Of a DNA stretch of 64,000 nt, positions 30,700-48,311 are shown one piece after another (position 1 is the first letter of the stretch; every line of letters begins with the position of its first letter). Position numbers and translations under genes: made by a program. The notes under the pieces were generated by a model, which saw nothing but the letters and a program-made list of their open reading frames with translations, was not told the DNA's origin and ran no database searches. This stretch comes from Candidatus Poribacteria bacterium. GTDB lineage: Bacteria; Poribacteria; WGA-4E; PCPOR2b. The stretch lies in the NCBI GenBank assembly GCA_965198175.1, contig OZ240245.1, forward strand, positions 2,365,382 to 2,429,381. Direction: 5' to 3'.

Positions 30700-31800
30700 A
30701 GCAGATAGACACGGACAGTAAAAAGCAGTAAAATAAGGAACGAGGAGGTAAGTATGGTGAAACCAACCCGGCTTGATTACTGTCAGTATCTGCTGAGCAG
30801 TCCAATTAACTATACCTTAACGCACTTCGCCGACCACAGCGAAGATTTCAGTCATGATATGATAAACCGTTATCTGGCGGGAGATTGTATTCCTCCTCGC
30901 TTGGTGTGGGAAAACGTTAAACCTCATCTGGTTCAAGTTGAAGAAGGATATGTCATCTTTGATGACACGGTTTTAGATAAAAAGCACGCTAGGCATATTG
31001 AGTTAGTACGTCGTCAATACAGTGGCAACGCCCGGGGTGTTATCAACGGCATCGGAGTAGTTACTTGTGTCTATGTGAATCCACTGCTAGACCGTTTCTG
31101 GGTAATTGACTACCGGATTTACGACCCAGAAGGAGACGGCAAAACGAAGTTAGACCACGTCAGAGACATGTTATCTCTACTGGTCTACCAGAGACAACTT
31201 CTCTTTCAAGCAGTGCTGATGGACAGTTGGTATGCTACCAAAACCGTGATGCTACACATTGAAAACTTGGGAAAAGTCTACTACTGCCCACTAAAAACCA
31301 ATCGGCTGGTTGACGATTCAAACGCCAATAAACCGTACCAACGCATTGACAACTTAGCTTGGACACCGACCGAACTTCATGAAGGCAAACGTATCAAAAT
31401 CAAAGGGTTTCCCAGAGACCACAAGGTGAAATTATTTCGGGTGGCGTCTGATACCGGACGCACGGATTATGTCGTCACTAACGACTTAGCACAAAACGAC
31501 ACTTCAGTGACACAACAGGCGTGTAACTGGCGGTGGAAGATTGAGCAATTTCACCGTGAAGCCAAACAACTCACCGGTCTCGAAAAATGTCAATGTCGAT
31601 TGGCACGGATTGTTCGCAACCATATCGGTTGTGCATTGTTAGTTTGGATTCGACTTGCAACTATGGCGTACCAGACTGGACGAACCATTTATCAGGTTAA
31701 ACACGGGATGCTGGAAGCGTATTTACGACAACAGTTAAAATCTCCGGCTATTAACATGGCGCTTGCGTAAGTCCTAACGAAGTGTACCATCCCTTTTCTG
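30700..31800. mobile_element. IS element (IS4/IS701-like), boundaries approximate
   Basis: Contains a single DDE transposase gene. Terminal inverted repeats could not be resolved by eye. Confidence 0.45.
30754..31770 (+). CDS. DDE transposase, IS4/IS701-like
   Basis: 338 aa. Candidate catalytic D (FDDTV), D (LMDSWYA) and E (HREAKQ, with K downstream), in the typical IS4-type arrangement. Confidence 0.65.
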   Translation: MVKPTRLDYCQYLLSSPINYTLTHFADHSEDFSHDMINRYLAGDCIPPRLVWENVKPHLVQVEEGYVIFDDTVLDKKHARHIELVRRQYSGNARGVINGIGVVTCVYVNPLLDRFWVIDYRIYDPEGDGKTKLDHVRDMLSLLVYQRQLLFQAVLMDSWYATKTVMLHIENLGKVYYCPLKTNRLVDDSNANKPYQRIDNLAWTPTELHEGKRIKIKGFPRDHKVKLFRVASDTGRTDYVVTNDLAQNDTSVTQQACNWRWKIEQFHREAKQLTGLEKCQCRLARIVRNHIGCALLVWIRLATMAYQTGRTIYQVKHGMLEAYLRQQLKSPAINMALA

Positions 31801-34273: not shown

Positions 34274-35083
34274 GTGAAAGCCGCATTTAGGAAACTAACC
34301 CTCGTATGCGTAAGTTCTAGTTTTCTTGGGCTGATAATCGCAAGCCCAAGTTATTCCAAAATTAACTCAGAAACCATCGTCGGAATCTGGTTACTTGATG
34401 AAGGTCAAGGAGATATAGCAAAAGACGCTTCTGGCAACGGCCATGATGGAGAGTTCATCGGTTTAAACCCTCAATGGGTAAAAGGCAAGTTCGGCAGGGC
34501 GTTTGAATTTGACGGACAGGATGATTCTGTCCTATTTAATGCCAAAGAACGTCCCGAACACGCTTTTATATTTCATCAGCCGACCGACGCGACATTCCTG
34601 TTTTGGGTGAAAAGACTCACGTTACCTCATGTTGCGATATTCTGGACGAGAGGGGATAACTCCGATAACGGTAGATTTAATGTCTATGCGGGCGCAGGTG
34701 AAAATTTTGGCTTCACTTACAAAGCTGATGATGGAACACCACATGGGATTTTTTCTCGCACAGTTGAACTCCCTTTAAAGGAATGGACGCACTTAGCAAT
34801 AACACGGGAAGGCAATACCTATGTTGCTTACAAAGATGGAATTATAGCGGACGAAACCGTTGATCCAGAACCAGACCTGCCCACAGCTAAAAGATGGATC
34901 GCTTCGGGCAGAGATGGTTTTCTTTTCAACGGCATCCTCGACGAAATTGCCGCGTTCAATGCCGTCCTGAGTGAAGAGGATATTAACAGGATCATGAATG
35001 ATGGACTTGAGAAATCAGCGCTCACTGTTTCCTTGGCTGGGAAACTGACGACAATTTGGGGACAAATAAAGCACGTGGAATAA
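34274..35083 (+). CDS. secreted LamG (concanavalin-A-like lectin) domain protein, array member 1
   Basis: GTG start after AAGGAGG. Signal peptide. LamG_3-like motifs (DASGNGHDGEF, KGKFGRAFEFDGQDDSV, WTHLAITREG, ILDEIAAFNAVLSEEDI). Confidence 0.6.
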   Translation: MKAAFRKLTLVCVSSSFLGLIIASPSYSKINSETIVGIWLLDEGQGDIAKDASGNGHDGEFIGLNPQWVKGKFGRAFEFDGQDDSVLFNAKERPEHAFIFHQPTDATFLFWVKRLTLPHVAIFWTRGDNSDNGRFNVYAGAGENFGFTYKADDGTPHGIFSRTVELPLKEWTHLAITREGNTYVAYKDGIIADETVDPEPDLPTAKRWIASGRDGFLFNGILDEIAAFNAVLSEEDINRIMNDGLEKSALTVSLAGKLTTIWGQIKHVE

Positions 35084-35417
35084 TTCTGGCTTGAAGCTTC
35101 CAGAATAAGGCATCTGAAAATTGCTTAGGAAATATGCACCAAGTTTTGCGCTGTCACAACATCAACAGAGATCCCACAGAAAGTCTAAGCGGCCCCATCC
35201 GCAGCCGAACTCGCGGAAGTCCGAGAGAATGTCCAAATTATTCAAAATTTGCCTTAGAAACCGTCGTCAAGGTCTGGGGATATTCGATTAAGGCAAAGGC
35301 GACGAGGATTTAGATTCTTCTGAGAGCGAGTTGCACGGTGTGATCGCCGGGAATCCCGCTTGGGTCAAAGGGGAGCTGAAGCAAAATAGAACCCATCAAA
35401 ACCAAAGGAGGACAGCG

Positions 35418-36212
35418 ATGCGTGCTTTAATATTCGCGCTTTTGACAATTGCTTTGATTTATGCTTTTTCCTTCACAGCAGAGGCGGCAATCAACCCGGA
35501 AGCTATAGTGCTTTCGTTGTCGTTTGACGAAGGAGCAGGTGAAGAAGCTAAGGACGCCTCCCCACTCGGGAACAACGTGTTTTTCGTTGAAGGGGCGAAA
35601 TGGGGTGAGGGAAAATTCGGAAAGTGTGTACGGTTGAAAAAGACCGCTCACCTAGAGACTGAGATGCCAAACCTTGAGCTACACAATACTGATTTGACGA
35701 TGGCAATGTGGGTTAACTTCGCCGAGGAACCCGGCTGGGTTGCGCTTATGAGTCACGATGAAGGCGCGCAAATAGGCGCGAAAAAATGGGCCTGGTGGTA
35801 TTCGGCCGGCGCGTTCGTTTTCTATATTGATGACGCAGATGAAAAGCGCGAGTGGGTGCGTTCCGATTTCTTTGGGACACCAGAGCTTAATCGGTGGTAT
35901 CACCTCGCGTTTGTCAAGCAGAATGACCTACATACACATTATGTGGACGGTGAACCGTTTGGGGAGGAAGAAAAAAAAGCGCCTGTACCCGAAGCAATTA
36001 TAGGGCCATTATCCATCGGTGCGACAGGTATTAGGTATTTTTTCCAGGGTCTACTGGACGAGGCTTTGATTGTGCGGCAAGCGTTAAGCCAGAACGACAT
36101 CCAGAAGCATCTCGACGGCGGCGTTGACGGAATCCTGGCGGTCGACCCGGGTGGAAAACTCGCAACTAGATGGGGCAGCCTGAAGATGGAACGCAATTTG
36201 TCCGGCAATTGA
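35418..36212 (+). CDS. secreted LamG-domain protein, array member 2
   Basis: Signal peptide MRALIFALLTIALIYAFSFTAEA. Shares the core LSFDEG.GEEAKDAS..GN, AKWGEGKFGKCVRL, LAMWVNF, NRWYHLAFVKQ, FQGLLDEALIV.QALSQNDIQKH and KLATRWGSLKM with members 3-6. Confidence 0.65.
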   Translation: MRALIFALLTIALIYAFSFTAEAAINPEAIVLSLSFDEGAGEEAKDASPLGNNVFFVEGAKWGEGKFGKCVRLKKTAHLETEMPNLELHNTDLTMAMWVNFAEEPGWVALMSHDEGAQIGAKKWAWWYSAGAFVFYIDDADEKREWVRSDFFGTPELNRWYHLAFVKQNDLHTHYVDGEPFGEEEKKAPVPEAIIGPLSIGATGIRYFFQGLLDEALIVRQALSQNDIQKHLDGGVDGILAVDPGGKLATRWGSLKMERNLSGN

Positions 36213-36303
36213 TGGATTAATCCCTCAAATATTCAGTCCACTTCCGGCAAGATGGAAGGGCAATACCAAATTGAAAGCTAATCAGCGGCTAGGGAGGAAA
36301 ACA

Positions 36304-37101
36304 ATGCGTGTTTCGATATCCATGTTCTTAATGATAGTTTCGGTGTGGACGTTTCCATTCGGAGCAGAGGCGGCAATCAACCCGGAAGCTATAGTGCTTG
36401 CGTTGTCGTTTGACGCAGGAGAAGGTGAAGAAGCTAAGGACGCCTCCCCACTCGGGAACAACGTCTTACTCGTAGAAGAGGCAAAATGGGATGAAGGGAA
36501 GTTGGGTAAGTGTGTGCGACTTAAAAAGACCGCTCACCTAGAGACTGAGATGCCAAACCTTGAGCTACACAATACCGATTTGACGCTGGCGATGTGGGTA
36601 AACTTCGCCGAGGAACCCGGCTGGGTTGCCCTGATGAGTCACGATGAAGGCGCTGGATTAAATCTCAAGAAATGGGCTTGGTGGCTTCAGTCCGGTACGT
36701 TCGTGTTCCACATTGATGATGCGATTGAGAAGCGCGAATGGATCCGTTCCGATTTCTTTGGTGCACCGGAACTCAACCGGTGGTACCATCTCGCGTTTGT
36801 CAAACAGAAGGCCCTACATACGCATTATGTAGACGGTGAACCGTTTGGGGATGAGGAAAAAAAAGCACCTATTCCCGAAGCAATTGAAGGACCATTCTCT
36901 ATCGGTGCGACGGGTATTAGGTACTTTTTCCAAGGCTTGCTAGATGAAGCATTGATCGTAAAGCAGGCGTTGAGCCAGAACGACATTCAGAAGCATTTCG
37001 CTGGCGGCGTTGCCCGCATTCTAGCAGTGGAGCCGGGTGGAAAGCTCGCAACCAGATGGGGCAGCCTGAAGATGGGACGCGGCTATTCTTACGGTCAATG
37101 A
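36304..37101 (+). CDS. secreted LamG-domain protein, array member 3
   Basis: Close paralog of member 2 (about 85% aa identity). RBS-supported ATG at 36304. Confidence 0.65.
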   Translation: MRVSISMFLMIVSVWTFPFGAEAAINPEAIVLALSFDAGEGEEAKDASPLGNNVLLVEEAKWDEGKLGKCVRLKKTAHLETEMPNLELHNTDLTLAMWVNFAEEPGWVALMSHDEGAGLNLKKWAWWLQSGTFVFHIDDAIEKREWIRSDFFGAPELNRWYHLAFVKQKALHTHYVDGEPFGDEEKKAPIPEAIEGPFSIGATGIRYFFQGLLDEALIVKQALSQNDIQKHFAGGVARILAVEPGGKLATRWGSLKMGRGYSYGQ

Positions 37102-37184
37102 AGCAATATCCCAAGAAATTCAATCTGCTTCCAGCGACTTGGCGGGTCGATTATCAATACATCCACGACAATAGAGTGACAATA

Positions 37185-37985
37185 ATGCGTGCTTCGAGAT
37201 TCATATGTTTAACGATTGCTTTGGTGTGGGCTCCTTCCTTCAGTGCGAATGCGGGAATCAATGCGGACGCAGTTGTGCTCGCGCTGTCGTTTGACGAAGG
37301 AGAGGGCGAAGAAGCCGTAGACGCATCTCCAAAGAGAAACGACGCAACTCTGGTACAGGGCGCTAAATGGGGTGAAGGAAAGTTTGAAACATGCGTCCGT
37401 TTAAAAAAGATTGCCCATGTAGAGGTTGCAAACCATCCAACCCTTGATTTGCACGACACTGACTTTACGCTGGCAATGTGGATGAACTTTTCCGACGAAC
37501 CCGGCTGGTATAACCTGATGGCACACAGTGAGGGGCCTGGAGGAGATGATAAGAAGTGGTTCTGGATGTTCTCTGGCGGCAAGTTCAAATTCCACATCTT
37601 TAACCCGGGAGGCGAGCTAGTGTGGATAGATTCCGACTTCTTTGGGTTCCCTGAGCTTAACCGTTGGTACCACCTCGCCTTGGTCAAGCAGGGTGACCAG
37701 TACAGTTTTTTTCTGGATGGCGAACTGTTCGGGGAATCAGTAAAAGACTTGCCTGTTCCCAAGGAGATTAACAACGCTCTCACCATTGGATGGTCGCAAG
37801 AAGATCGCTATTTTCAGGGCCTTCTAGATGAGGTGTTCATTGTGAAACAGGCACTGACCCAAGACGATGTCCAAAGGCATCTATCCGGTGGCATCCAAGG
37901 GATTTTAGCTGTCGAACCCGGTGAGAAGTTTACGACCAGATGGGGTAGCTTGAAGATAGGACACGGATTGTCCAATGACCGATGA
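37185..37985 (+). CDS. secreted LamG-domain protein, array member 4
   Basis: Paralog with signal peptide MRASRFICLTIALVWAPSFSANA. ATG at 37185. Confidence 0.65.
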   Translation: MRASRFICLTIALVWAPSFSANAGINADAVVLALSFDEGEGEEAVDASPKRNDATLVQGAKWGEGKFETCVRLKKIAHVEVANHPTLDLHDTDFTLAMWMNFSDEPGWYNLMAHSEGPGGDDKKWFWMFSGGKFKFHIFNPGGELVWIDSDFFGFPELNRWYHLALVKQGDQYSFFLDGELFGESVKDLPVPKEINNALTIGWSQEDRYFQGLLDEVFIVKQALTQDDVQRHLSGGIQGILAVEPGEKFTTRWGSLKIGHGLSNDR

Positions 37986-38052
37986 AGTAATCTCTTGAAA
38001 TAACTATCCAATTTCAGCAAGACGACGCAACAATACACAATAGGGTACAGCG

Positions 38053-38850
38053 ATGCGCGTTACGAGATTCACTTTATTTTTGATTGCTACGCTGTGGGCG
38101 TTATCCTTCACAGTGGCGATTGCAATCGAGCGTGACGCTATTATATTGGCGTTGCCGTTTGACGAAGGAAAGGGCAGAGAAGCCAAGGACGTCTCCATGC
38201 ACGGAAATCACAGCGTCCTATCGGACACCGCCAAGTGGGCACAGGGGAAAATTGGGATGTGTGCACGCTTGAAGGACGCCTACGTGGAAGTGGCGAATCA
38301 CCCAAGTCTCAGCCTGCATAACACCGACTTTACAATGGCGATTTGGATAAAGTTTACCGAGGAGGCAGGCTGGTATGACCTAATGGCTCACAGCGAAGGC
38401 GGTGGAGGTGATGATAAACAGTGGATTTGGCTGCTTTCCGGCGGAAAATTCAAATTCCACCTTCATAACAGAGGAGTTGATATTACGTGGATCGACTCCG
38501 ATTTCTTTGGGTTTCCTGAGCTTGACCGCTGGTACCACCTCGCTCTTCTAAAGCAGGGGAACCAATACACGCATTATCTAGATGGCGAATTGTTCGGGGA
38601 AGAGATGGATGATACCCGCATCCCAGATGAAATCAATCACCCACTCACCATCGGTACGGGACCAGGCGAATTCTTTATACAAGGATTCGTAGATGAGGCT
38701 TTCATCACACGGCAGCCATTGACACAGAACGACATCCGTAACCATTTTGCTGGCGGCATCCAGGGCATTTTGTCAGTTGAACCGAGTGAGAAACTCGCAA
38801 CCAAATGGGGTTATTTGAAGATGGGACACAATGTGTCTCGCCTACAATGA
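38053..38850 (+). CDS. secreted LamG-domain protein, array member 5
   Basis: Paralog with signal peptide MRVTRFTLFLIATLWALSFTVAIA. Confidence 0.65.
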   Translation: MRVTRFTLFLIATLWALSFTVAIAIERDAIILALPFDEGKGREAKDVSMHGNHSVLSDTAKWAQGKIGMCARLKDAYVEVANHPSLSLHNTDFTMAIWIKFTEEAGWYDLMAHSEGGGGDDKQWIWLLSGGKFKFHLHNRGVDITWIDSDFFGFPELDRWYHLALLKQGNQYTHYLDGELFGEEMDDTRIPDEINHPLTIGTGPGEFFIQGFVDEAFITRQPLTQNDIRNHFAGGIQGILSVEPSEKLATKWGYLKMGHNVSRLQ

Positions 38851-38933
38851 AGCAATGCGCCAAGAGATCCAATCCGATTCCAGAAACGTGGAGAGTGAAC
38901 TATAAACTCATCATCAGCATTGGAGTAACAACG

Positions 38934-39737
38934 ATGTGTATTTCAAAGTTCATGTTATTGACGATTGCTTTACTGTGGGCGTTTCCCTTCACCGTATCAA
39001 CAGCAATCGACCAAGACGTTATTGTACTAGCGCTGTCGTTTGACGAGGGAAAAGGCAGAGACGCCAAGGACATCTCCTCACAGGGAAACCACGGCGTCCT
39101 ATCAGAGACTGCCAAGTGGGCACAGGGGAAAATCGGAATGTGCGCACGCCTAAAGAACGCATATGTAGAAGTGGCGAACCACCCAACACTCAGTCTGCAC
39201 GACACGGACTTTACGATGGCGATCTGGTTAAATTTTGCTGAAGAGGAAAGTTGGTATGACCTAATAGCGCACAACGAAGCACCCGCAATAGATGTCAAGA
39301 AATGGATCTGGATGTTTGCCGGTGGCAAATTTAAATTCCACATTAACGACAGAGGGGTTAAGATTGCGTGGATTGACTCCGAATTCTTCGGGTTTCCCGA
39401 GCTTGACCGCTGGTACCACCTCGCTCTTGTCAAGCAGGGAAACCAATACACGCATTATTTGGATGGAGAATTCTTTGGAGAAGAAACGGATGACACCCCC
39501 ATCCCCGATGAAATCGATCACGTACTCACAATCGGCTCGGGACCAGGCGATCGGTTTATCCAAGGATTTGTGGATGAGCTTTTCATCACGCGGCAGCCAT
39601 TGACACAGAACGATATCCTTAACCATTTTGCTGGGGGCGTCCAGGGCGTTTTGTCAGTTGAGTTAGGAGACAAACTCGCAACTAGATGGGGAGACCTAAA
39701 GACTGGTCGGACATCCCTTCCTTCGAATCCTCCGTAA
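38934..39737 (+). CDS. secreted LamG-domain protein, array member 6
   Basis: Close paralog of member 5. Signal peptide MCISKFMLLTIALLWAFPFTVSTA. Confidence 0.65.
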   Translation: MCISKFMLLTIALLWAFPFTVSTAIDQDVIVLALSFDEGKGRDAKDISSQGNHGVLSETAKWAQGKIGMCARLKNAYVEVANHPTLSLHDTDFTMAIWLNFAEEESWYDLIAHNEAPAIDVKKWIWMFAGGKFKFHINDRGVKIAWIDSEFFGFPELDRWYHLALVKQGNQYTHYLDGEFFGEETDDTPIPDEIDHVLTIGSGPGDRFIQGFVDELFITRQPLTQNDILNHFAGGVQGVLSVELGDKLATRWGDLKTGRTSLPSNPP

Positions 39738-39958: not shown

Positions 39959-40037
39959 AGGTTTGGCTATCGTACAAACATGAAGCCAACTTGAGAAATT
40001 GGTTTTTTCGTTTGTTTCAATTATAGGAGATAAGGAA

Positions 40038-40889
40038 ATGGGTGAGTTGTTTACAGAAGAAGAAGTCAACCGATTCCATCGAGATAGTTTTATCATTGTC
40101 GAGAACTTTCTGGATGCGGAGGAGACTCAACTCCTTTATGAGGCAGCCAAAGGAGACTATGTACTGATGCAACACGCTCACGAGGTTAAGGACACAGAAG
40201 GGAAGAACTCTAAGCTGGCGCTTTGGGATCAACCTGGCAACGACATCTACGGGCTGATTGCTAAAAGCCATAAGATGGTGGACAGGATAGAGCAGTTGCT
40301 CGGCGCCGAAGTATATCACTACCATTCCACGATGATGCTCAAAGAACCCCGGGTCGGCGGAGCGTGGGAATGGCATCAGGACTATGGATACTGGTATCAC
40401 TACGGCTGTCTATTCCCAGATGTTGCCGCGTGTATGGTCGCGATTGATGAGCAGACGGAAGAAAACGGCTGCCTACAGGTGATTAAAGGATCACACCGGC
40501 TAGGACGTTTGGATCATGTGGAACAAACCTCTGCGGGCAGTACCCAGACCAGTATCGATCCAGAACGCATAGAAGCCATCCTAGCACGCATGGAATTGGT
40601 CTATTGTGAAATGCCGCCAGGCGCCGGGATTTTCTTTCATGGCAATATCCTACACCGATCCGATGCGAATCTGAGCGACAAACCCCGCTGGGCGCTGAGA
40701 TGTGTTTATAACACGGTTTACAATGACCCCTACAAAGATATCAAACATGCCCGCTATACGCCGCTACAGAAGGTTCCCGATTCGGCAATCAAAGCCGGCG
40801 CCGCTAAAATCAGTGACTCTGCCAAAGAATATTACTCCGGAGAATCACTGCGAACTTCTCGACCCGATGCTTCCGAATCCTCATCCTGA
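40038..40889 (+). CDS. PhyH-family Fe(II)/2-oxoglutarate dioxygenase
   Basis: RBS AGGAG before the ATG. PhyH-type motifs (WHQDYGYW with His-x-Asp, distal FHGNILHRS). Confidence 0.6.
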   Translation: MGELFTEEEVNRFHRDSFIIVENFLDAEETQLLYEAAKGDYVLMQHAHEVKDTEGKNSKLALWDQPGNDIYGLIAKSHKMVDRIEQLLGAEVYHYHSTMMLKEPRVGGAWEWHQDYGYWYHYGCLFPDVAACMVAIDEQTEENGCLQVIKGSHRLGRLDHVEQTSAGSTQTSIDPERIEAILARMELVYCEMPPGAGIFFHGNILHRSDANLSDKPRWALRCVYNTVYNDPYKDIKHARYTPLQKVPDSAIKAGAAKISDSAKEYYSGESLRTSRPDASESSS

Positions 40890-40979
40890 TGGTTCGTTTG
40901 ATGGATCCCACAAAATACTAAATTCCAACCCGATTCGGAATCATCAAATAGAACGTTTGAACTTAATCCACGAAAATAG

Positions 40980-41852
40980 ATGCTGGGGACCAATGTGCTC
41001 AGTCAAAACCAAATTGATGAGTTTCGTACCAAAGGCTTTCTCCTCGGTGGATGCGTGGTGAGTGGCAAACAGGTTGACGTTCTGAGGGCGGAAATCGATC
41101 GCGTGCTTGTTAAACAAAATACTGACAAGCCCCAGCCGATCCGGCTTGTGAACCTGTCCCCTAATCCCGATAGCGTAACTTGGCAAATTACGAACATGTG
41201 GGAAGCTAGCGATCCTTTCTGTGAGCTCATATACAACCCCAAAATTGTCGGTGAGGTTGTCCAACTGACGGGGGCGCACCAATTGCGGGTCTGGCACGAT
41301 CAAATCCAGTATAAACTAGCGGAGCGAGGCGGCATCACCGGCTGGCATCAAGATTCGCCTTGTTGGCCCATCCTGACGCCGAAGACAAGCCAAGTGACGG
41401 CATGGGTTGCGCTGGACGATGTAGATACATCCAACGGTTGCATGAGTATGGTCGCAGGGGCATACCATTGGGGAGATCAGATCGATTTTTTGCACAGCAT
41501 ACAGGATTTCAATGCGATGCCGTCAACTTTCCAGGATCGCGACGTGCAGGTAGAGTTGTGTCCGGTACCGGCGGGACATGTTCACTATCATCACGGTTTG
41601 GCTTGGCACGGTTCTCACGCAAATACCAGCACCCGACCGCGTCGAGCGATTGCAATTCACTACATGACCGGTGAGACACGCTACGATTCCACCGGCAACC
41701 ACACGATGAAACCCTTTGTTGAAGTCGCCAATGGAGAGATATTGACAGGTAACCGCTTCCCGTTAGTTTCGGATGATGGCAATGTGATACGCCCGAAATT
41801 GCCGAAGTTTCTCGATTCATTAGGTATTCGGGAAATTAGATGTAGGTTTTAG
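40980..41852 (+). CDS. PhyH-family Fe(II)/2-oxoglutarate dioxygenase (second, divergent copy)
   Basis: WHQDSPCWP with H-x-D, distal HHGLAWHGSHAN. Same fold family as the upstream gene but low identity to it. Confidence 0.55.
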   Translation: MLGTNVLSQNQIDEFRTKGFLLGGCVVSGKQVDVLRAEIDRVLVKQNTDKPQPIRLVNLSPNPDSVTWQITNMWEASDPFCELIYNPKIVGEVVQLTGAHQLRVWHDQIQYKLAERGGITGWHQDSPCWPILTPKTSQVTAWVALDDVDTSNGCMSMVAGAYHWGDQIDFLHSIQDFNAMPSTFQDRDVQVELCPVPAGHVHYHHGLAWHGSHANTSTRPRRAIAIHYMTGETRYDSTGNHTMKPFVEVANGEILTGNRFPLVSDDGNVIRPKLPKFLDSLGIREIRCRF

Positions 41853-41861
41853 GAGTATTCA

Positions 41862-44059
41862 ATGAAGCAGCTGTTCAGCGTAGAGCATTTGATGAACCTC
41901 CAACGCCCAACAGATCGTGTACCAATGAATCTATCGCCAGACGGTCGTTTACTAGCTGTGAGCGTACAGGGAATACGGCGAAAAGCGGTAGATATACGAG
42001 AAGACGGATTTGGCGTAGACGGTGTTTACGAAGCAATGGATGGCAGCCATATATTTGTCATAGATACAATAACTGGAAAAGCTCAAGAGCCATTTCCGAC
42101 TTGAAAGCGTTAGTTGGGGCGGACAGTGGTCACCTGATGGAAGCCGTTTAGCAGCATACGTGCGACACAACGGATTAGTGTGTTTAGGAGTTTGGTCTCC
42201 GGAGACCGATACTTTCCAGTTGTTTCAGCAAGCATTGATACGGACCAAATACGGATTTGAAATCCCGCGATGGACTCCAGATAGCAGAAAGGTTATCGTG
42301 AAGTTATGCCCTGTGAGTGGCGCGTTCAAACCGCCCGCACCAGACCAAGCATTGCTTCCTAATCAACCACCTCCCGTTAGCGTCTTCTCGTTTGATTCCA
42401 CCCGTGAAGTCGATACCCGCCCGACAGGTGCTTGGCTATATGATGGCACATGCTGCGATCTTGGATGTATAGATGTCACTACAGGTGAGGTAACAAGATT
42501 GGTCTGCGATTGGCCTGTGTGGAACTGGCGGGTTGCACCCGATGGTAAAACAGTCGCCGCATTCAAGTTGGCAGAATATGATTCGCAAAGCTACCGGATG
42601 ACCTACGATTTGGTCGTTGTTCCACTAGATGGAACACCTCCACGGACAATTGCTAGCAAGATATATCACGGCGGGGGTGGATTTAACTGGTCTCCCAACA
42701 GTTAGCTTATTGCCATTACAATGGACGATGGGGACGACGACGGATCCCCCAAACAACTCTTTGTTGTACCCGCAGACGGTTCTGAGAGTCCCAGAGCTCT
42801 AATAGACGAGATGACGATTAAGATGGATGATTATCTTGGACCGCACTGGAGTGAAGACAACTCTTCCATATTTTGTTTAACGCGAGATCACGTATGGATA
42901 TTCAATGCTGACGGGAGCAATCAACGCCAAATGAATGTCGTTCTTCCCGGCTGGCGGGTGGTTTTTTGGATTCAGCCTCCGATGGATTCAATATTACGGT
43001 CGTCACCGGATGGTTCTCTTTTCGCTGTTGTTCGAAATGACGTCTGGGACGAAGCAGTGGTTCGCGTTTCTCTTGAAAGTGGCGAAGGGACAATCCTGAC
43101 AGAATTTACCAAGTCGTGTTGGGATCCATTTCAGACCGAAGTTGCCTCCGATTTTTCTGCATGTTACCTTGTGGCTGAATCGGCAGAACACCCCGCAGAA
43201 ATTTGGCGTGTCTCTCTTGATACACCCGTTCTCAACCGTCTCTTTTCACTCAATTCGGATTTAGAGGGCGTTGCGTTAGGTAAACCTCGCTTGATTGAGT
43301 GGCGGGCATTGGACAAACAAATGCGACGTGGTGCGCTGCTCTTGCCTCCAAACTACAGTGAAGGAGAGCGTATTCCGGTGATTGTCCATGTATATCGCGG
43401 TAATTTCTCGTCCTGGATTCACGACTTTGGCTTTGGTGGAGGACACTACGATAATGCGCAATTGCTAGCGAGTCAGGGCTACGCTGTGCTCTGGCCAGAT
43501 CTCCCGATTGATAGACGTAAAATGCAGGAAATACCCAAATTCGTCTTACCTGCTGTTAATCGGTTGATTGATTTAGACATCGCCGATCCCAATCGAATTG
43601 GACTGATGGGGCATAGTGACGGAGGGTACTGTGTGTTAGCACTTCTAGCCCAAACGGATTGTTTTCGAACAGCTGTCTGTTCTGCAGGTGTGGTCAATAT
43701 TACGAGTGATTACGGTACAATGAATGACAAAGGCGATAATTCTCATGGCTATGAACTAGGAAGCGAAATGGGCGGAACGTTATGGGAAAAACGGGATGCC
43801 TACATAGAAAATTCACCCTTGTTCTACCTTCACCGTGTAAAAACACCATTGCTATTTAGTACAGGGCACGGAGGATATATGGGGGGCAAACCAGGTCAAA
43901 GAAGCGTTTAGTGCATTGCGGCGCCTCGGGAAACCGGTGGAGTTGCGGTTATACCATGGGGAAGAACATTGGCCAGGTGCATGGTCTGAACGTAATTTTC
44001 GGGACGTATGTCACCGAGTCCTAGCCTGGTTTAACCAGTATCTTGGAGCGCCCCAGTGA
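41862..44059 (+). pseudogene. S9-family (prolyl oligopeptidase / dipeptidyl peptidase-like) serine peptidase disrupted by an in-frame TAG and at least two frameshifts
   Basis: The N-terminal beta-propeller (WSPDGR) and C-terminal alpha/beta hydrolase (GHSDGGY = GxSxG; ...VELRLYHGEEHW...) are spread over ORFs 41862..42104, 42160..42705 and 42721..43911 plus an unlisted frame 43893..44059. TAG at 42706..42708 is in frame. The last frameshift sits in a G6 homopolymer at ~43885. Confidence 0.5.
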
Positions 44060-44403: not shown

Positions 44404-44907
44404 GTGATTTTAGAGCGTTGGGTTGTATCGTTATCGAAATATACAAGGCTTACCCTAAAAATTGCTGACCGCCTGATTGATCGTATCAATCTTGAACCGA
44501 TTGAAGGTGAAAATGGGAACGTAGGGGTAAAAGCCGTATGGGTTGGCGAACCCGGTAAGATCATGATTGAATTAAACGCTCAGTCTTTGAAAGGGAGCAT
44601 TCAAACTGAGGGCAATCGCGCACCAACGATTGAGTATTGGCAAATAGGCGAGAGACGCGGATTTGCGTTAGGAAATCCCAAAAGCATTTCTTGTGAACTT
44701 GATGAGAAAACGCTACGAAACATTTTAACCCCTAAAGCTGCGGGGATTGCAATGGCTGCCGGCGCAGCGATTGGGTTGGTGAGCTGGTTTGCTACGGCAA
44801 TCGCTAGCCGGGTGACGTTAACTAAACAGGAAACGGGAAAGCCTGCGCCTCCGTTGCTCGACTCACAAAAGACCAGTACAGATGGTTTCATTGAAAGTGA
44901 AGGATAA
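44404..44907 (+). CDS. hypothetical protein with C-terminal TM segment
   Basis: ORF only. Hydrophobic stretch AAGIAMAAGAAIGLVSWFATAIA. Confidence 0.3.
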   Translation: MILERWVVSLSKYTRLTLKIADRLIDRINLEPIEGENGNVGVKAVWVGEPGKIMIELNAQSLKGSIQTEGNRAPTIEYWQIGERRGFALGNPKSISCELDEKTLRNILTPKAAGIAMAAGAAIGLVSWFATAIASRVTLTKQETGKPAPPLLDSQKTSTDGFIESEG

Positions 44908-45113: not shown

Positions 45114-46034
45114 CTACCAATTGGGATCGTAGTCCCAGTCGACTTTCTGGTTTCCGTATCGCTTGTCATTAAACATCGTCTGATGACAATCGAGGCATCT
45201 GTCATACAGGTTCACGCCGTGAACCTCATGTGCAAGCTGAATCTCGGGTGTGTTGTGAACGTGACACGTCCGGCAGGTGTACGTTCCGTAGCTTACATCG
45301 GAGTGAATGTTGAGCTGTCTTTCATCGTTCCTGACAGAGTATCTCCGTCCGTTTCTTGGGTCGATTATCAGCCACTCATTACCCTTCTTTTTCATCGAAA
45401 TCACAGTATCTTCAGATATTGGAATCTCGCGAATATCAAATTCCCACTGCACATCTTCCGGAAGCCTGTCCTCCTTGTCAAACTCTTCTTGCAGGTGCAC
45501 ATCAAAACTGAATAACAGTGAATCCGTGGTATGACACCGCGCACAAGGAACATCGTGTAATTGCGTCAACGGAAAGAACTCGTCGTGATCGAGTTTCTCA
45601 CGACCGTGTACGATGATACCAACCATTAAGATTGGGGCAAGTGCGAGATGGACACGCAACAGAATCCGTCTTGCTCGACGCGCCGTTAGACTCACCGCGA
45701 TACCTGTTCCTAGGTTGAGCAATGCCAGGGTGAGTGTCAACCAAGAATGCCATGCAAGTGGGCGAACAGCGGAGTGAATAACAACGAGACACAAACCAAA
45801 AGACGCCAGCCTTTGATGATATTTCAACCAGATTTGCCGACTACCCCATCGAATCAGGCGTGTGCGCAGGATGTAACCGCTTGCAATCAGGATGGCAATT
45901 GCCCCAATGATGCTGAGTATATGCCGCACTTCGCCATAGCCCGATTCCCATAGCCCAAAGGGAGAGGATATCAACACGAATGCGACGACAACTGCTCCAG
46001 CAACACCGTAGGCAATTTGTATAAACTGGCTCAT
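45114..46034 (-). CDS. integral-membrane tri-heme c-type cytochrome, possibly with a b-heme-binding TM domain
   Basis: About 5 N-terminal TM helices carrying conserved His. The C-terminal soluble domain has three CxxCH motifs (CARCH, CRTCH, CLDCH). Confidence 0.5.
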   Translation of the reverse strand: MSQFIQIAYGVAGAVVVAFVLISSPFGLWESGYGEVRHILSIIGAIAILIASGYILRTRLIRWGSRQIWLKYHQRLASFGLCLVVIHSAVRPLAWHSWLTLTLALLNLGTGIAVSLTARRARRILLRVHLALAPILMVGIIVHGREKLDHDEFFPLTQLHDVPCARCHTTDSLLFSFDVHLQEEFDKEDRLPEDVQWEFDIREIPISEDTVISMKKKGNEWLIIDPRNGRRYSVRNDERQLNIHSDVSYGTYTCRTCHVHNTPEIQLAHEVHGVNLYDRCLDCHQTMFNDKRYGNQKVDWDYDPNW

Positions 46035-46153
46035 AATGTGGGATAGTTCATTTTCCCGAAACGTTGGCTGGTGATGAATGTATAATTGTTAGTCCATATA
46101 TTTTGAATACGCTAGTTCTTGGCTCAAGTCGGTTGGCACAGCCTTTAATTTCT

Positions 46154-47092
46154 TCAAATGCTCTTATCAGAGGTTGCAGGAAGCGTCACATCTATAAATA
46201 GGTCTTCCAACCAACGTTCAGTTTTTTGAAAACGCAAAATCGTCGCGCCTGCATGAATCAAATCTTTGAGCAGATTCGCGATTTCTGTGTCTGTGATCTG
46301 TGATTCAATCAAAATTTTTGCCTCTGTTACCTCAAACGACGTCAAATTCGATCTGCTTTTCAAGAGGGCTTCTGCTTTATCAATGCCCTCTATCACATCA
46401 ATTTCGATCCGATGGCTTTGTGTAATTTGACCGGCGATGTCCGTGACATCACCATACAGGGCGAAACTACCTTTATCCAGAATTCCCAGCCGGTTACAGG
46501 TAGTCACTACGTCTGTGAGCCGATTGGTACCTAAAATCACCGTTTTTCCCATCGCACCAAGTTCATTGATTAATGCCTGCATCTCGATCTGCCCTCGTGC
46601 ATCTAATGCTGAGAGCGTCTCATCCAGAAACCAGATCGGTGGATCGTGCAAGAAGGTCTTGGCAAGACAAAGCCTTCGTTTCTGGCCCAGAGAGAGCTGT
46701 TCGATTTTCTGATCGCGTAGGGCGGTCAAATCCATCAGCTCGAGGACATCTTTCATGCCCGCCGCACGCAGCGCCCGGTCTATTTTGTATGCAGATGCGA
46801 AAAAATCAAGATACTCCCAAACAGAGAGAGCCGGATAACCGTCAAAGGTTTGAGGCACGTACCCAATGAGCGGGCGGACTCTATTAAGGTTGGCAAATGC
46901 ATCATAGCCAGCAATTTCGACAACGCCAGACGTGGGTTTGACAAGCGTCGCAAGAATTTTCAGCAGAAGTGTTTTGCCGGAACCATTTAAGCCTAGCAGA
47001 GCAAATCGATCGCCTGCGGCGAGATCCCAGGAGAGGTTGGTAAGAATCTGTCTTTGTTGAATAGATTTGCATAATTCTTGAACACGAATCAT
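46154..47092 (-). CDS. ABC transporter ATP-binding protein
   Basis: Walker A GLNGSGKT, signature LSLGQKRR, Walker B IWFLDE. No canonical permease gene adjacent. Confidence 0.8.
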   Translation of the reverse strand: MIRVQELCKSIQQRQILTNLSWDLAAGDRFALLGLNGSGKTLLLKILATLVKPTSGVVEIAGYDAFANLNRVRPLIGYVPQTFDGYPALSVWEYLDFFASAYKIDRALRAAGMKDVLELMDLTALRDQKIEQLSLGQKRRLCLAKTFLHDPPIWFLDETLSALDARGQIEMQALINELGAMGKTVILGTNRLTDVVTTCNRLGILDKGSFALYGDVTDIAGQITQSHRIEIDVIEGIDKAEALLKSRSNLTSFEVTEAKILIESQITDTEIANLLKDLIHAGATILRFQKTERWLEDLFIDVTLPATSDKSI

Positions 47093-47201: not shown

Positions 47202-48311
47202 TCAAGCTTTTGATTGGCTTGCATTGACGTTTAGTAACTGCGCGTGAATGGGCTTCCAGTCACTGCGACGATTGCTGATGAGAATCAACCGATCTGTCGG
47301 CTGAATCTCGAAGTCAGGCGGCGGATTAATCCAGTGCTTACTGCTTCGGATAACCCCGACTAATATGACCTGCGCACCCAATTTCATGAGTAGAGATTGC
47401 AGTTCATTAAAGTGAAATCCCTCGACCTCAATAGTTTCAGTATACAATTCACTCCCTTCAGCCTGCGTCAACAGCTCGGCAATGGCGTGAGACAGTCCAT
47501 GATCTCGGACTTCCTGCGCTAATACTTTAGCAGCGATGTTACGTGTGGGAATGACTGCATCACAATTGAAAGCTCGAAACAGCGGTAGATGTCCGATACT
47601 ACTGCACTCAACAATTGTCCTGACCTTGGGATTGAGGGTCTCAATGAGGGAAACAATCGAAGATGTAATTGCATCTGCAGCATGTTCATCGGTTTTCGGC
47701 GTAAGAATCAGCGACGCATAAGCTCTTGCAACATTTGCTCTATTCAGGGATTCATCTTGCAATGGCGATCCTCGGACAAAATAGACATTCGGATTGTTGA
47801 AAGGGATTTCCTCAATATTGTCTGCCAGGATGACAAGAGATCGATCGGATGTAACTGGGTCTGATGCAAGCTGATCTATGATTGCGGCGACCTTCAATTC
47901 GGATGGAAAATTCACAATAACGATATGGTCATCAACAAGATCCCGGCAATCAATGAGTCCGTAACGGCGATTGTTCTGTCCTTCGACGGCAATATCCACG
48001 ATCTGGGTGATAACGTACGGGAAGCAAGCTAACCCAACCAGATATAGCAGAACCATTGTGCCGATACGCCCACCTACGGTCGTTGCAGAGTAATCCCCGT
48101 ATCCGACTGTTGTGATTGTCGTAAAACTCATCCAGACAGAATCCCAAAGTGTCAACTGAAGGTGTGCTTTTCGCTCAAAGAGATAAAAACATACTGAATT
48201 GAGAATGATACAAAGTAAAGCTAGACCGAGTACTCCTGCAATCCGTCGGATATGACGATTGTGATATGCACGACGAAGGCGACGGCAGTATCGAAGAGTA
48301 AGAGTAAGCAT
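47202..48311 (-). CDS. potassium channel (2TM/P-loop) with cytoplasmic RCK/TrkA-like domain
   Basis: Selectivity filter TTVGYGD. Followed by a Rossmann-like RCK region (IVIVNFPSE...). Confidence 0.7.
   Translation of the reverse strand: MLTLTLRYCRRLRRAYHNRHIRRIAGVLGLALLCIILNSVCFYLFERKAHLQLTLWDSVWMSFTTITTVGYGDYSATTVGGRIGTMVLLYLVGLACFPYVITQIVDIAVEGQNNRRYGLIDCRDLVDDHIVIVNFPSELKVAAIIDQLASDPVTSDRSLVILADNIEEIPFNNPNVYFVRGSPLQDESLNRANVARAYASLILTPKTDEHAADAITSSIVSLIETLNPKVRTIVECSSIGHLPLFRAFNCDAVIPTRNIAAKVLAQEVRDHGLSHAIAELLTQAEGSELYTETIEVEGFHFNELQSLLMKLGAQVILVGVIRSSKHWINPPPDFEIQPTDRLILISNRRSDWKPIHAQLLNVNASQSKA

Follow-up and report, generated by a model that had tools for sequence, protein, structure and literature searches.

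A putative bc-type membrane cytochrome conserved in Poribacteria, with a two-haem-b pattern and three c-haem motifs

Membrane cytochromes such as CymA/NapC, NrfH, ImcH and CbcL pass electrons between the quinone pool and periplasmic redox partners. NapC-type proteins have one transmembrane helix (TM) and four or five c haems, and contain no b haem. ImcH has three TMs and seven CxxCH motifs, and CbcL, MtrH and MtoC, from Geobacter and other organisms, have been proposed to act as quinol oxidases or quinone reductases that feed periplasmic partners (PMC6295460). In CbcL the c-haem domain is N-terminal and carries 3-23 CxxCH motifs (9 in G. sulfurreducens), and the C-terminal part is a HydC/FdnI-like membrane region of six TMs (PMC6295460). 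Here we analyse a gene from a Candidatus Poribacteria bacterium (assembly GCA_965198175.1, contig OZ240245.1), located in a stretch of 64,000 nucleotides (positions 2,365,382 to 2,429,381 of the forward strand), which we refer to as the window. An earlier, sequence-only reading of the window had pointed to a membrane cytochrome encoded next to an ATP-binding cassette (ABC) ATPase.

Poribacteria are abundant, uncultivated sponge symbionts, and to our knowledge their respiratory chain is known from annotation only. We consider it fairly likely that the gene product is an integral-membrane bc-type cytochrome specific to Poribacteria, in which two b and three c haems would form a wire connecting the quinone pool or the cytoplasmic face with periplasmic partners.

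Architecture of the cytochrome and its putative haem sites

The gene and its parts are located as follows; relatives that share the inserted domain of the window protein are called long forms, and those without it short forms.

45114..46034, minus strand: complete gene for the predicted membrane b/c-type cytochrome, long form, 306 aa
45597..46034, minus strand: N-terminal five-helix membrane domain, residues 1-146, presumed seat of two bis-His b haems
45531..45596, minus strand: periplasmic linker with the invariant H150-D-x-F-F-P-L and H160, followed by the first CxxCH
45531-45545: CxxCH no. 1, C164ARCH (C164, C167, H168; residues 164-168)
45279..45530, minus strand: inserted beta-alpha-alpha-beta4 domain of ~84 aa, residues 169-252, not in short forms
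45114..45278, minus strand: C-terminal di-haem segment with CxxCH no. 2 and no. 3 and the invariant H260, H269 and H272, candidate distal ligands
45261-45275: CxxCH no. 2, C254RTCH (residues 254-258)
45183-45197: CxxCH no. 3, C280LDCH (residues 280-284)

The hydropathy profile contains five hydrophobic segments (approximately residues 5-29, 39-57, 76-91, 98-117 and 125-144). Two loops are rich in lysine and arginine, 58-75 (five K/R) and 118-124 (four K/R), and the remaining loops are on the opposite side, together with the C-terminal part, which is acidic (32 D/E versus 19 K/R). By the positive-inside rule, the predicted topology is N-in/C-out, with cytoplasmic loops of 18 and 7 residues. TM5 then runs in-to-out and places the CxxCH-bearing part in the periplasm, as covalent haem attachment requires. 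There are exactly three CxxCH motifs, which contain six of the seven cysteines; all three are invariant among the relatives and predicted to be on the periplasmic side of the membrane, as expected of a c-type cytochrome.

The sequence-only reading had described a 306-residue product with about five TMs, each carrying a conserved histidine, fused to a periplasmic domain with three CxxCH motifs. The hydropathy and the K/R-rich loops agree with this number of helices, and the b/c-type architecture, in which a His-bearing TM domain is joined to a periplasmic tri-haem c domain, is borne out. A histidine on every helix is not: the TM2 (H38), TM3 (H73 and H87), TM4 (H96) and TM5 (H129 and H143) regions have them, and TM1 has none. 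Also, the periplasmic domain is more than a tri-haem part: the reading had overlooked the inserted domain of ~84 residues that separates haem 1 from haem 2.

To assess conservation we aligned 132 relatives, 122 long forms and 10 short forms. The gene is highly conserved across the phylum (54-87% identity), and short forms share about 34-54% of their residues with the window protein. Ten histidines outside the CxxCH motifs (H38, H73, H87, H129, H143, H150, H160, H260, H269 and H272) and the three motifs themselves are shared by every sequence of the set (132 of 132), and H96 is present in all 122 long forms and in 7 of the 10 short forms. Judged from this alignment, the conservation of the histidines and CxxCH motifs is far beyond chance. 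The TM histidines, on whose conservation in homologues the earlier note had staked its proposal, are retained throughout, save for H96 in three of the ten short forms.

The histidines of the membrane domain are arranged in two pairs, H73-x13-H87 on TM3 and H129-x13-H143 on TM5, with the members of each pair 14 positions apart. The topology puts H73 and H129 towards the cytoplasmic side of the membrane, and H87 and H143 towards the periplasmic side. An H-x13-H pair on each of two helices is the established ligand pattern of di-haem cytochromes b and of ferric-reductase domains, and represents the classic two-haem-b pattern. Two stacked bis-His b haems would span the bilayer, the inner one held by H73/H129 and the outer one by H87/H143.

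The window protein matches no Pfam or NCBIfam model at threshold, with sub-threshold matches only, and a PDB search with the family profile found no sequence relative (best E-value 5.7), in agreement with the claim of the sequence-only reading that it falls outside the NapC/NrfH and cytochrome bc families. The NapC/NirT/NrfH family was rejected on the basis of its models (PF03264, Cytochrom_NNT, 12.1 bits with a cut-off of 24.1; TIGR03153, NrfH, 10.2 with a cut-off of 134.2), and the NapC-type anatomy, a single N-terminal TM anchor with four or five CxxCH, was rejected as well, with five helices and three CxxCH in the window protein. No model for the cytochrome b of bc1 or b6f complexes is among the Pfam matches at E <=1 of the window protein and 21 diverse members of the family, and neither the window nor the recurrent neighbourhoods of the cytochrome gene contain a Rieske or c1 gene. 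The sub-threshold matches to the TM domain, obtained with different members among these 21, are to Ni_hydr_CYTB (best E-value 1.2e-4), DUF4405 (1.1e-3) and Ferric_reduct (3.1e-3). Ni_hydr_CYTB and Ferric_reduct are two-haem-b families, and DUF4405 is, we presume, in the same Pfam clan. The comparison with the hidden Markov models of the b561 and ferric-reductase families, which the earlier note had proposed as a check, left the window protein below the cut-off of PF01292 (cytochrome b561/HydC/FdnI, the family of the CbcL membrane domain; 11.4 bits with a cut-off of 30.1) and without a match to PF01794 (Ferric_reduct) at E <=1; the two models have sub-threshold matches in 5 and 4 of the 21 members, respectively.

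The N-in orientation and the His pairs spaced by about 13 residues on TM3 and TM5, both running in-to-out, correspond to the layout of a ferric-reductase domain (FRD) without its sixth helix, and not to bc1 cytochrome b. With five TMs in place of the six-TM core of the ferric reductase superfamily, we describe this as a resemblance of predicted layouts; membership is not demonstrated. FRDs (NOX, STEAP and MsrQ/YedZ) have six TMs, lack c haems, and usually work with a flavin/NAD(P)H module or partner on the cytoplasmic side. The likeness raises the alternative that the protein is a ferric-reductase-like TM reductase (similar to MsrQ, STEAP or FoxB) with a non-respiratory role, in which electrons from a cytoplasmic donor or quinol would pass through the b haems to the c haems and on to a periplasmic ferric chelate or repair enzyme. 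We find this alternative unlikely. The helix numbering shared with NOX/FRD proteins and the four sub-threshold Ferric_reduct matches argue for it, but hhalign gave a probability of 0.1% against MsrQ, and the window cytochrome has neither the sixth FRD helix nor a flavin/NAD(P)H domain.

In the periplasmic part, the three CxxCH motifs of short forms are within about 70 residues. Cytochrome_C7 gave sub-threshold matches in all 21 members tested and Cytochrom_CIII in 19 of them, with a best E-value of 8e-5. The window protein scores 16.3 bits on the class III model PF02085 (cut-off 22.9) and 14.4 bits on the c7 model PF14522 (cut-off 24.8); a short form (P0128) reaches 22.9 bits on the class III model, equal to the cut-off of 22.9. 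These matches suggest that haem 1 and the C-terminal di-haem segment constitute a putative c7/c3-like tri-haem module, which is compact in short forms only, since the inserted domain interrupts it in the long form. The CxxCH motifs would bind three c haems covalently, with bis-His ligation and an arrangement like that of cytochrome c7/c3.

The inserted domain (residues 169-252) is placed between haem 1 and haem 2 and missing from the short-form relatives. It has no Pfam or NCBIfam model and no clear PDB match. In a profile search, the segment alone matched hundreds of otherwise unrelated proteins (among them P0126, P0132, P0135-P0137, P0139, P0142, P0145 and P0150), with one to five copies per protein, often two to five in tandem, and up to seven matched stretches in P0146. 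Its consensus reads LLFxxxxxFQxDLDxxxISxxLRxxFxxxGxxLSxxAxVxxxxxGxxWxITDxxxxxxYxVRKExxxLxIY, and the predicted beta-alpha-alpha-beta4 structure is confident (pLDDT 88). The co-occurring domains are pentapeptide repeats, caspase, HAMP with cNMP-binding, or what the source names an RsbU-type phosphatase. In sensor proteins the domain follows an N-terminal signal or anchor, or is located between TM1 and the TM that precedes HAMP, which makes it extracytoplasmic and agrees with its periplasmic place in the cytochrome. Each Poribacteria locus has exactly one copy, within the cytochrome gene. From these sequence matches it looks like an undescribed extracytoplasmic domain family, widespread among sensors outside the cytoplasm and among proteins with caspase domains or pentapeptide repeats, and would merit a family definition of its own.

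We hypothesize that the b and c haems together constitute a wire of at least five haems, through which the quinone pool (or the cytoplasmic face) would exchange electrons with redox partners in the periplasm, either soluble or lipid-anchored. By analogy with the other proteins in which it is extracytoplasmic, the inserted domain is probably a docking or ligand-binding module. Several points weigh against the proposed wire. The c-haem regions of the AlphaFold2 model are of low confidence, and no family model matches the TM domain at threshold. The hhalign comparisons with the single E. coli MsrQ and YodB sequences gave 0.1% probability each, and no redox gene is among the recurrent neighbours within 6 kb of the cytochrome in 85 Poribacteria loci. 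Finally, five bis-His haems need seven histidines outside the CxxCH motifs, whereas ten are invariant (plus H96 in long forms). The surplus points to something further, such as an additional haem, a quinone site or a metal site. H38, H96 and H150 are placed at the periplasmic membrane surface, a predicted position in which they could be ligands of haem c1 or of an extra haem, or part of a quinol site.

Distribution and gene neighbourhoods

A search of 5.8 billion proteins yielded 221 relatives of the window cytochrome, without a precomputed Pfam domain in any of them; those that carry a name are all annotated as 'hypothetical protein' and come from Candidatus Poribacteria. Scanning one genome per GTDB species revealed 137 loci that encode relatives, of which the best 80 are all from metagenome-assembled genomes (MAGs) of Poribacteria or from unclassified 'uncultured bacterium' MAGs; the named short forms are likewise from Poribacteria. 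In a no-index HMMER search, which covered 1.84 billion representatives at 50% identity, the full-length family consists of one long-form representative and five or six short-form clusters of 232-251 aa. With every taxonomically named relative in Poribacteria, the family looks, by its sequence distribution, like a signature protein of the phylum. Among the literature matches listed for Poribacteria and cytochromes, no paper describes this protein, as judged by titles and abstracts. Some genomes encode two long-form paralogues that are far apart (L019 and L036 on OZ240209.1; L034 and L055 on OZ246960.1; L033 and L043 in CAXXCS01), and all six of these copies are within one tree clade.

The gene neighbourhoods were surveyed in about 85 non-redundant Poribacteria loci, with clustering of the neighbours within 6 kb. 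In 30 loci the cytochrome gene is monocistronic and located beside rpsD-rpoA-rplQ and an outer-membrane protein gene. In another recurrent context it is found between the genes for an HtrA-like protease (15 loci) and a uridine-kinase-like protein (18 loci). The strong conservation throughout the phylum and the mostly monocistronic gene in housekeeping surroundings fit a core respiratory role.

Two short-form loci have a candidate partner. In a divergent lineage (L012, 20-1072), a gene of the EB_dh family (PF09459, 113 bits) is co-oriented with the cytochrome gene and located 12 nt upstream, and its product carries a CxxCH motif and a lipoprotein-type signal. A related, co-oriented upstream gene with CxxCH is present in L009 (90-734). 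From these sequence features it is plausible that the EB_dh-family protein is a periplasmic haem protein and the redox partner of the short form.

In a Poribacteria locus from Lake Tanganyika (L180, 1726-6756), a short-form cytochrome follows co-oriented genes for a TonB_C protein and a TonB-dependent receptor, and a divergent uroporphyrinogen decarboxylase (URO-D) gene is nearby. This context, found in one lineage only, hints at iron or haem uptake. It is the genomic evidence for the ferric-reductase-like alternative introduced above, but the receptor is not assigned specifically to siderophores or haem, and in sponge-associated Poribacteria no iron-uptake genes are among the neighbours.

In the window, the gene directly upstream of the cytochrome encodes an ABC ATPase. 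The genes and loci that bear on this neighbour are listed here.

46154..47092, minus strand: solitary ABC ATPase, 312 aa, DrrA/GldA/CcmA-like (PF00005, 96 bits)
47202..48311: K+ channel with RCK domain, upstream of the ATPase
L093 7001-7948, L094 7001-7948 and L104 5998-6936: solitary ATPase loci
L096 6942-11589 (same in L097-L099, L105 and L106) and L011 1271-5853: pelagic operon

The ATPase gene is co-oriented with the cytochrome gene and separated from it by 119 nt. The match to the DrrA-type C-terminal domain is below threshold (21.6 bits, cut-off 27.4), as are those to the family models drrA (175 bits, cut-off 312), GldA (162, cut-off 403) and CcmA (124.6, cut-off 131.6). A Pfam scan of 43 of the 44 listed open reading frames with 200 aa or more in the window, leaving out 37154-37786 (minus strand), which overlaps a Laminin_G_3 gene, found no ABC membrane component or permease. 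The earlier description of a co-oriented ABC ATPase without an ordinary permease is therefore accurate. Across Poribacteria, orthologues of the ATPase are 60-68% identical and, in L093 and L094, solitary among unrelated genes. A relative from a lake metagenome (L104), 45% identical, is likewise solitary and flanked by metabolic enzymes. None of these three loci has an ABC-2 or CcmB permease next to the ATPase. The genes that follow the ATPase in L093 and L094 were considered as the missing permease and rejected, as they encode unrelated soluble proteins.

Conservation of the gene pair across genomes, the other check proposed in the earlier note, is largely absent: about 75 of the 85 Poribacteria loci lack an ABC ATPase gene at a distance of up to 10 kb from that of the cytochrome. 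Two clades keep the adjacency and form an unexplained remainder. The first is the clade of the window (the window, L005, L013, L014 and L015), in which cytochrome identity is 80% or more and the synteny of K+ channel, ATPase and cytochrome is preserved. The second consists of pelagic, short-form loci (L011, the TARA contigs L096-L099, L105 and L106). The pelagic operon contains, in this order, MTH1187/Thiamine_BP, an ABC ATPase of 244 aa, an 8-nt gap, the short-form cytochrome, a 44-nt overlap, a protein of 622 aa, and BatA/VWA. The pelagic ATPase is 46% identical to the ATPase of the window and the orthologues in L093 and L094, and 26-30% identical to other ABC ATPases from the same loci; on this ground we treat the pelagic and window ATPases as orthologous. 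In the 622-aa protein, with only a weak ABC_cobalt match, the N-terminal half is lipoprotein-like and the C-terminal half polytopic; neither the window nor the other loci compared encode a homologue. It may be the membrane partner of the ATPase.

In a neighbour-joining tree of the cytochromes, the pelagic clade is basal to all long forms, and the window clade is nested among lineages in which the ATPase is not adjacent. Since the pair is unlikely to have been re-created by chance beside the same orthologue, two lineages have probably kept an ancestral gene order. Other lineages have repeatedly given it up while keeping both genes, so that co-transcription is not required.

These observations bear on the module suggested by the sequence-only reading, in which cytochrome and ATPase (with the 622-aa protein in pelagic lineages) would be one unit for redox-linked export or assembly. 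Orthologous ATPases directly upstream in two phylogenetically separated clades, the tight packing of the pelagic genes, the lack of a canonical permease beside the ATPase in any locus examined, and a score on the CcmA haem-exporter model not far from its cut-off (124.6 versus 131.6 bits) all speak for such a unit. However, most loci have no ABC ATPase nearby, ATPase orthologues are solitary elsewhere, and the 119-nt gap in the window gives no sign of co-transcription. The cytoplasmic loops of 18 and 7 residues leave little room for a coupling interface, and members of the DrrA/GldA subfamily typically reach a CcmA score of this size, with higher scores on the subfamily's own models (175 and 162 bits). 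We judge such a unit improbable. What stands is orthologous adjacency in two clades; elsewhere the genes are apart, and the ATPase appears to be a syntenic neighbour in some lineages and not an obligatory partner. A redox-linked ABC module is weakly supported and not established.

The CcmA-like ATPase next door is also one argument for a role in haem trafficking or chaperoning, in the manner of CcsBA or CcmF, with the TM and periplasmic histidines holding haem in transit. Other arguments are that these histidines are paired and invariant, and that long forms have an invariant Trp-rich periplasmic loop, A-W-H-S-W. This loop is not kept in short forms, there is no match to a WWD-domain or CcsA/CcmF family at E <=1, and the three CxxCH motifs indicate that the protein is itself a cytochrome c substrate. 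Such a role is, in our estimate, highly improbable.

We speculate further, as a long shot, on two schemes. Either the cytochrome, the ATPase and (in pelagic lineages) the 622-aa protein descend from an ancestral system in which ATP hydrolysis was coupled to or gated by the haem subunit, and whose genes have since been scattered in most lineages, with both proteins retained; or the cytochrome is a minimal, Rieske-less quinol:cytochrome c oxidoreductase and as such a core respiratory enzyme of the phylum.

Other parts of the window deserve mention. Six tandem Laminin_G_3 (concanavalin-like) genes (34274-39737) are followed by two PhyH (phytanoyl-CoA dioxygenase) genes (39999-41852); Laminin_G_3 genes recur near the cytochrome in 28 other loci. 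At 41862-43911 (plus strand), a prolyl-oligopeptidase (S9)-like gene appears to be split into open reading frames of 80, 181 and 396 aa, the latter two in the same frame with a stop codon between them. The syntenic position in L005, between the 167-aa open reading frame described below and the PhyH genes, holds a single gene of 546 aa, matched by position only. The split gene may be a pseudogene or a sequencing error. The 167-aa open reading frame (44404-44907, plus strand) is convergent with the cytochrome gene, has no Pfam match, and is kept in that place only in the clade of the window (5 loci). A DDE transposase gene (DDE_Tnp_1; 30754-31770, plus strand) represents a mobile element in the window.

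Comparison with known systems

The cytochrome is highly conserved in Poribacteria, yet every annotation calls it 'hypothetical'. Should it prove to be a wire of two b and three c haems, it would be a missing link from the membrane to periplasmic redox enzymes in these bacteria, and a new architecture among the few bc-type cytochromes made of a single polypeptide. To a specialist in respiratory chains, the architecture and the conservation throughout the phylum will be noteworthy and not startling; the link with a permease-less ATPase and the new domain family add upside.

Like the NapC/NirT/NrfH/CymA proteins and ImcH, which link the quinone pool to periplasmic reductases, the window cytochrome has an N-terminal TM part and putative C-terminal periplasmic haems. 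Unlike them, it has five TMs, three CxxCH motifs and putative b haems. The short forms resemble cytochrome c7 and class III (c3) proteins in having three CxxCH motifs and additional histidines in about 70 residues. Those proteins are soluble, whereas the corresponding module of the present family is joined to a membrane domain, with a foreign domain of 84 aa interrupting it in the long form. The neighbouring ATPase has the canonical nucleotide-binding domain of DrrA/GldA/CcmA-type ABC-2 ATPases, but, in contrast to these, no adjacent ABC-2 permease.

There is a functional parallel with CbcL, MtrH and MtoC, which combine a di-haem b membrane domain and a periplasmic multihaem c domain in a single polypeptide. 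In contrast to CbcL, the membrane domain of the window cytochrome comes first, has five TMs, and carries its His pairs on two helices. As judged from the predicted architecture, the cytochrome is outside the CbcL/MtrH/MtoC, ImcH and NapC/CymA/NrfH families, from which it differs in domain order, number of TMs, ligand distribution and sequence. Single-polypeptide b/c membrane cytochromes are already known, and what would be new here is the TM-first order, the His pairs on TM3 and TM5, and the split c7-like module.

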